Shown here in pieces: positions 8,998 to 9,097 of a stretch of DNA of 64,000 bases (its first letter is position 1; each line of letters starts with the position of its first letter). The DNA is from Methanomassiliicoccales archaeon (GTDB lineage Archaea > Thermoplasmatota > Thermoplasmata > Methanomassiliicoccales > UBA472). The notes under the pieces were generated by a model. That model was not told the origin of the DNA. It made no database searches and was given only the letters and a program-made list of their open reading frames with translations. The stretch covers positions 3,017 to 67,016 of the forward strand of contig JAVYMA010000009.1 of NCBI GenBank assembly GCA_038740345.1, written 5' to 3'. A program made the position numbers and the translations under genes.

Positions 8998-9097
8998 GCC
9001 ACTGTGGCTTAGAGGTAGCGCTACTGGATTAGCGCCTCTAAATAGCGACGCCTTGGTAAGGCGTAGGTCGAGGGTTCGAGTCCCTCCAGTGGCTCCA
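8998..9097 (+). tRNA. tRNA-Thr (anticodon GGU) with a 25-nt non-canonical intron in the D-loop (about 9017-9041); CCA encoded
   Basis: Cloverleaf folded by hand:
- Acceptor: GCCACTG/CAGTGGC.
- Anticodon arm: ACGCC-TTGGTAA-GGCGT (9048-9064).
- Variable loop: AGGTC.
- T arm: GAGGG-TTCGAGT-CCCTC.
- Discriminator T, then CCA.

The D region is 25 nt too long. Removing 9017-9041 restores GCTT-AGAGGTA-TAGC. Confidence 0.8.

Follow-up and report, generated by a model that had tools for sequence, protein, structure and literature searches.

The window analysed here, a 64,000-nt stretch of contig JAVYMA010000009.1 (GCA_038740345.1) from a Methanomassiliicoccales archaeon MAG, harbors at 8998-9097 on the forward strand what is very probably a functional tRNA-Thr(GGU) gene, interrupted in its D-arm by a 25-nt protein-spliced intron at position 20/21. 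The gene is 100 nt long, and direct reading of the forward strand reveals an acceptor stem GCCACTG/CAGTGGC (8998-9004/9087-9093), an anticodon arm ACGCC-TTGGTAA-GGCGT with the anticodon GGT, a T arm GAGGG-TTCGAGT-CCCTC, a discriminator T (9094) and an encoded CCA (9095-9097). At the RNA level, the 5′ part reads GCCACUG-UG-GCUU-AGAGGU and is followed by the intron AGCGCUACUGGAUUAGCGCCUCUAA, by A-UAGC-G and by the 3′ part, ACGCC-UUGGUAA-GGCGU-AGGUC-GAGGG-UUCGAGU-CCCUC-CAGUGGC-U-CCA. The Rfam tRNA family (RF00005) matches 8998-9094 across all model positions 1-71 (58.8 bits; E 3.7e-10), with a 26-nt insertion, comprising the 25 nt and A21, placed after the D-loop GGU, and the MFE fold is likewise a cloverleaf. 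The covariance model recognizes a complete tRNA with its extra nucleotides confined to the D-loop. This agrees with the preliminary description of the gene, which had reported all canonical arms, an encoded CCA and an excess between the D-stem strands, and for which every string and coordinate of the arms, bulges and hairpin is present in the sequence. As the anticodon loop UUGGUAA is unbroken, the insert is not a canonical 37/38 intron.

The 5′ exon (8998-9016), representing tRNA positions 1-20, exactly matches the initial 19 nt of an intronless orthologue, while the 3′ exon (9042-9094) extends from A21 to the discriminator U73, is directly followed by the CCA and also matches this orthologue; the intron occupies 9017-9041. 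A putative TATA-box-like element, TTTATCAA, can be read at 8965-8972 on the same strand, approximately 26-33 nt upstream of the gene, and may constitute its archaeal promoter element. The CCA is genomically encoded in the tRNA-Thr genes of the window and of nearly all orthologous loci (L010-L124), with the exception of L038, which also carries the longest intron (30 nt).

The insert and the surrounding D-arm can be folded into a bulge-helix-bulge (BHB) structure. The outer helix (h) is formed by the D-stem, GCU/AGC (9007-9009/9044-9046; pairs G10-C25, C11-G24 and U12-A23), with U9010 and U9043 forming a 13.22 mismatch. The central helix (H) pairs AGAG (9011-9014), made up of the D-loop nucleotides A14, G15, A16 and G18, with the intron-encoded CUCU (9036-9039), which is found in 11/12 aligned genes and in two further loci (L123 and L124). 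The 5′ bulge GU/A (9015-9017; the slash marks the predicted 5′ splice site) comprises G19, U20 and the first intron base, is unpaired in both the MFE and consensus folds, and is invariant among the orthologues. The 3′ bulge AA/A (9040-9042), which holds the last two intron bases, A21 and the predicted 3′ splice site, reads AAA in all orthologues, its register being set by comparison with the intronless orthologue. An inner hairpin (h′), GCGCUA-CUGGAU-UAGCGC (9018-9035), supported by both the MFE fold and covariation, closes the structure. Each strand of the 4-bp helix is thus followed on its 3′ side by a 3-nt bulge, the two bulges being on opposite strands, and this core is flanked on the inside by a helix of 5-9 bp with compensatory changes and on the outside by a slightly irregular helix of 3 bp. 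The U13.U22 mismatch, which is shared by the intronless gene, makes the outer helix imperfect and, in strict terms, turns the 3′ bulge into a 1x4 internal loop.

At -43.5 kcal/mol (z = -3.0), a value which none of 200 shuffles equalled, the MFE structure of the 100-nt gene takes the form of a cloverleaf whose extended D-arm displays the hairpin and bulges that had been folded by hand. In this energetically preferred fold, and also with RNAalifold, U9010 however pairs with A9040, which extends the helix to 5 bp and makes AAU the bulge. When the D-arm piece is folded alone it is energetically unexceptional (z = -1.45; 14/200 shuffles as good), and energy was consequently left out of the argument, which is built on geometry and comparison. 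When the 25-nt insert was shuffled 200,000 times, a 4-bp helix in register and, next to it, a hairpin of 4 bp or more arose together 25 times. Together with its conservation in twelve genes, this bears out the h-B-H-B-h′ geometry initially proposed. Relaxed forms of the motif (hBH, HBh′ and bulge-helix-loop) were rejected, as neither of the two 3-nt bulges is missing and both are invariant. A group I or group II self-splicing intron was also rejected, given that the insert is a mere 25 nt and has no match to an Rfam intron family; searches of the window yielded no match to these families at the gathering threshold or at E-values up to 1. The core of the tRNA-Thr intron is of the strict BHB type, at a non-canonical position.

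In silico excision of 9017-9041 results in a 75-nt product which matches an intronless tRNA-Thr(GGU) gene on the Thermoplasmata MAG contig JAWCKF010000012.1 (L001) at all 75 positions, those of the CCA among them, as would be expected for a cut after the second base of each bulge that leaves a canonical tRNA. The tRNA score correspondingly rises from 58.8 bits with the insert to 71.0 bits in the spliced form, which is the score of the intronless gene itself, and it is by such a rise that tRNAscan-SE 2.0 accepts non-canonical introns (PMC8450103). This contig was the sole match among genome contigs and shares neither synteny nor protein similarity with the window; as such, it served as an intronless reference and not for taxonomy. 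At the level of sequence, the exon junction ...AGAGGU/AUAGCG... is set by this orthologue, and the D-arm GCUU-AGAGGUA-UAGC that had been predicted to remain after splicing is the one recovered. The cut positions within the bulges are less directly given, since A9017 and A9042 are identical and the removal of 9018-9042 (21/22) would generate the same product as removal at 20/21. They are accordingly assigned by the bulge rule, and the 3-4-3 geometry predicts cuts between 9016 and 9017 and between 9041 and 9042. The proposed location of the intron at about 20/21, instead of 37/38, is hence supported by the junction, with 21/22 being equivalent in sequence.

A scan of metagenome contigs for the flanking exon sequences, separated by a gap of variable length, identified at least 122 matching genes in at least 120 contigs. 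At least 108 of these are intronless, while at least 14 contain an insert of 24-30 nt at the same site. Two further intron-bearing loci, L123 and L124, were obtained through look-ups of the neighbouring RqcH protein, bringing the totals to at least sixteen loci on at least fifteen contigs and at least thirteen distinct genes, with the window being additional. Every insert starts with A and, with a single exception that has CUCCAA, ends in CUCUAA, while the interiors differ. In an alignment of twelve distinct intron-bearing genes, 99.1% of the structure cells are paired and all stems pair in 12/12 genes. Three of the four pairs of the central helix AGAG/CUCU are invariant among these genes and the fourth shows a single A.C. 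Covariation is confined to the inner helix, where the first three pairs are AU in seven genes, GC in four and GU in one; CG in nine, UG in two and GC in one; and GC in eleven and CG in one. The covariation score was reached by none of 500 shuffles, and registers slid along the alignment pair in 32-49%.

The gene adjoining tRNA-Thr encodes an RqcH/NFACT protein (6995-8926, reverse strand), and the order of rqcH and tRNA-Thr is widely syntenic. The tRNA-Thr(GGU) gene adjacent to rqcH is intronless in most of the Methanomassiliicoccales-like contigs listed. Where the full-length RqcH shares at least 55% identity with that of the window, the intron is present in 12/12 syntenic loci, while every locus with a full-length RqcH of at most 53% identity lacks the Thr intron. 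The intron therefore tracks RqcH identity and marks one sublineage of the order, within which the thirteen distinct intron genes span 50-67% neighbouring-protein identity. This distribution is compatible with a single gain of the intron, as judged from the sequences compared. Neither the RqcH of the window nor P0001 had an exact match in the contig index. On the other side of rqcH, the window carries a tRNA-Arg(GCG) gene (6910-6984, forward strand) with U53:A61 in its T-stem in place of G53:C61, a pair which is near-universal in tRNAs. The relatives of this gene have A53:U61 in L124 and G53:C61 in L123. It was missed by the whole-window Rfam scans and scored 51.7 bits when the 131-nt region was scanned alone.

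A second D-arm intron is found in a tRNA-Val(UAC) gene on the reverse strand (12498-12602), which scores 58.8 bits with Rfam and for which ARAGORN makes no call. Comparison with two intronless orthologues (L006 and L034), which have the junction ...GGUCAUG/ACGAC... and a mature D-arm GUCU-AGCGGUCA-UGAC, places a 32-nt intron (12548-12579) between positions 23 and 24, where it interrupts the 3′ strand of the D-stem. The central helix GUCA/UGAC (12585-12582/12553-12550) is flanked by the bulges UG/U and AG/A and covaries in relatives, where GUUA/UAAC and GUUA/UAGC are found; the outer helix consists of just 1-2 bp. Rfam places the insertion differently, as 34 nt after GGU with a pseudo D-stem GUCU/AGAC. 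This placement was rejected on the basis of the intronless orthologues, which locate the intron at 23/24, where the BHB motif is regular; no BHB motif was found under the Rfam placement. The misplacement occurs because the AG of the intron and the AC of the exon mimic a D-stem strand. The ambiguity of the Val junction varies among the orthologues, and the site predicted by the rule, after the second base of the bulge, is the only one common to all, which provides an independent check of the rule used for tRNA-Thr. Every Thr-intron locus that covers the Val gene also has the Val intron, while the two intronless-Thr loci that cover it are intronless for Val as well.

Several other explanations of the tRNA-Thr gene can be weighed against this evidence. 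A decaying pseudogene, or a tRNA gene with a short insertion that is never removed, would account for the failure of ARAGORN to parse the gene as Thr and for an unspliced score approximately 12 bits below that of the intronless form. Exon substitutions, broken stems and a patchy presence, as might be anticipated of a tRNA pseudogene, are however not seen: the exons match intronless orthologues with 100% identity, and the helix, both bulges and the covarying hairpin have been kept across thirteen distinct genes whose neighbours have diverged to 50-67% identity. Furthermore, the position adjoining rqcH is conserved, the insert is found in every member of the sublineage with no intronless copy at the locus, and a second tRNA, that for Val, displays the same design, leaving decay or a retained insertion highly improbable. 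ARAGORN itself recovers the same gene span that had been described but calls it tRNA-Gly(GCC), so that a glycine tRNA with its extra sequence placed elsewhere would have to be considered on this output. The 'gcc' in question, at gene position 37 (9034-9036), is situated inside the intron hairpin and helix, and since this supposed anticodon falls within the insert, the Gly(gcc) call is wrong. The covariance model, moreover, aligns a complete Thr(GGU) cloverleaf and the intronless orthologue is assigned as Thr(ggt) by ARAGORN itself; a glycine identity is scarcely credible.

It is also conceivable, if very unlikely, that the gene is spliced at other cut sites, either at 21/22 (9018-9042), which the identity of A9017 and A9042 makes equal in product, or in the 5-bp register with 26 nt taken out and A21 lost, in keeping with the preference of both the MFE fold and RNAalifold for a U13-A pair with an AAU bulge. 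Removal of 26 nt would leave GGU/UAGC, without A21, unlike all of the at least 108 intronless genes listed. The 3-4-3 rule specifies 9016/9017 and 9041/9042 and, applied to tRNA-Val, predicts the correct junction. A functional tRNA-Thr(GGU) gene with a 25-nt intron at 20/21 is thus the preferred reading.

In the archaeal pathway, the splicing endonuclease EndA cuts both bulges and an RtcB ligase joins the exons. Under the preferred reading, the D-stem of the pre-tRNA would run directly into the 4-bp helix formed by A14, G15, A16 and G18 with the intron CUCU, the G19-U20-A and A-A-A21 bulges would flank this helix on opposite strands, and the intron hairpin would close the structure. Since the central helix would engage A14, G15, A16 and G18, and G19 would be bulged out, formation of the D-loop/T-loop elbow presumably has to await splicing. 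EndA would then cut after the second base of each bulge, producing a 2′,3′-cyclic phosphate and a 5′-OH, and an RtcB-type ligase would join the exons to restore the normal D-arm GCUU-AGAGGUA-UAGC. The involvement of these enzymes, and splicing itself, are inferred by analogy with characterized archaeal systems.

No gene for EndA (sought by motif and a local HMM) was found in the window or in approximately 0.9 Mb of related loci, where no ligase gene was noticed either, and the enzyme was as such assigned at the level of the order rather than the genome. Searching with a profile built from solved EndA sequences yielded two Methanomassiliicoccales fragments, the composite of which in turn retrieved 119 further homologues (P0241-P0359). 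These are 338-381 amino acids in length and include proteins of M. luminyensis and Ca. M. intestinalis. The homologues are two-unit proteins, in which a full-length N-terminal structural unit lacking the catalytic Tyr and His is fused to a C-terminal catalytic unit which retains Tyr/His/Lys. They align best, end to end, with the beta-alpha fusion of M. kandleri, compared with the shorter enzymes of A. fulgidus and T. acidophilum. The 10-residue Crenarchaea-specific loop is absent in 119/119 homologues, where the loop carries a conserved [FY]GKxxG and is short as in A. fulgidus. Two long contigs, 959 kb and 955 kb in size, hold both rqcH and endA and have an intronless tRNA-Thr, while the 678-kb intron-bearing contig ERZ25039477:contig_49686 is not among the top EndA matches.

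Enzymes of the loop-less two-unit class have been reported to cut canonical BHB motifs only (PMC4033280, PMC5829648), and the EndA of A. fulgidus is reported to have "hardly cleaved" such a canonical motif when it was located in the D-loop, a limitation lifted by grafting the crenarchaeal loop onto the enzyme (PMC3241643). By analogy with these enzymes, the complete BHB cores observed here would suit a narrow-specificity endonuclease, while the D-arm placement is what this class reportedly handles poorly. It is about as likely as not that the sublineage has fixed two D-arm introns, at 20/21 in Thr and 23/24 in Val, while having, as do all 119 homologues retrieved for the order, only a two-unit EndA that lacks both the Crenarchaea-specific and the ARMAN-specific loop.

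Introns of this kind have several known counterparts. Position 20/21 is listed among the non-canonical intron sites of archaeal tRNAs (PMC4090602). A close experimental parallel is pre-tRNA-Thr2(UGU) of A. pernix (Hirata et al. 2011, PMC3241643), which is also a threonine tRNA with a canonical BHB within the D-loop and from which EndA alone excises the intron in vitro, needing neither a guide RNA nor modifications, although cleavage is slower than at 37/38. A. pernix is, however, a crenarchaeon whose heterotetrameric EndA bears the Crenarchaea-specific loop, and its tRNA has the anticodon UGU, whereas the present gene belongs to a euryarchaeon, has the anticodon GGU and is paired, at the order level, with a two-unit loop-less EndA; splicing has been demonstrated experimentally in the former and is predicted from sequence in the latter. 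Pre-tRNA-Glu(UUC) of M. kandleri, with an intron at 20b/21 (Kaneta et al. 2018, PMC5829648), is similarly euryarchaeal and interrupted at essentially the same D-loop position, and the M. kandleri EndA, to whose beta-alpha fusion the order's enzyme aligns best, likewise lacks the specific loop. This tRNA-Glu nevertheless has a relaxed HBh′ motif, which is missing one bulge, and an additional canonical intron, while both bulges and a single intron are present here. The introns of Thermoproteales, Thaumarchaeota and ARMAN-2, located at 20/21, 22/23, 25/26 and other sites (Yoshihisa 2014, PMC4090602; Fujishima et al. 2011, PMC3239211), follow the same transplantable BHB logic. These lineages have a broad-specificity EndA, many disrupted tRNAs and often relaxed motifs, in contrast to the two introns seen here, which both have a complete BHB core and occur in a lineage with an enzyme of the 'narrow' class.

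Within the order itself, Supplementary Table S7 of the tRNAscan-SE 2.0 report records thirteen canonical and six non-canonical introns in three Methanomassiliicoccales genomes, and only 25 non-canonical introns in 144 euryarchaeal genomes (Chan et al. 2021, PMC8450103). The same order and feature class are concerned, with about two non-canonical introns per genome compared with two in the window alone, the table being restricted to counts. Literature searches on tRNA introns in Methanomassiliicoccales or in Thermoplasmata turned up nothing beyond this supplementary-table count; a comparative-genomics paper devoted to the order contains no discussion of tRNA introns, and a 2025 EndA structure paper makes no mention of Methanomassiliicoccales or Thermoplasmata. 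As position 20/21 is already listed and six such introns have been counted in the order, the kind of intron was already known: it is an ordinary archaeal BHB intron at a known non-canonical position, rare yet already counted in the lineage.

Additional features can be observed in the remainder of the window. Two photolyase-type genes are present, one at 10813-12369 on the reverse strand (PF04244; photolyase-related) and one at 29721-31091 on the forward strand (PF00875; DNA photolyase). Members of the Methanomassiliicoccales are known mainly as anaerobic methanogens; no methanogenesis genes were noticed in the window, approximately two-thirds of its open reading frames having been read by eye only. 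A weak match to the fluoride riboswitch family (24967-25027, reverse strand; 20.2 bits against a gathering threshold of 34; E 0.4) lies within an open reading frame (24181-25113) in which an ArsA/Get3-like P-loop can be recognized by eye, and is therefore probably due to chance.

The finding leaves the known splicing mechanism unchanged. It does bear on annotation, as tools which expect introns at 37/38 only mishandle genes of this type: ARAGORN turns Thr into Gly and misses Val, and Rfam misplaces the Val intron. As such, tRNA-Thr(GGU) and tRNA-Val(UAC) could be reported as missing or wrong in this lineage. The tRNA-Thr gene furthermore offers a clear case, dated by comparison, of an intron which is present in one euryarchaeal sublineage and absent in its relatives, such that both alleles can be compared. 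Finally, it raises a mismatch between a D-arm BHB and a loop-less two-unit EndA, which the work on the A. fulgidus enzyme suggests would cut it poorly. If a loop-less EndA does splice both introns efficiently, the rule which limits this class to the anticodon-loop position would need revision, and the full-length structural unit of the order's enzyme or its [FY]GKxxG loop would be candidate adaptations.
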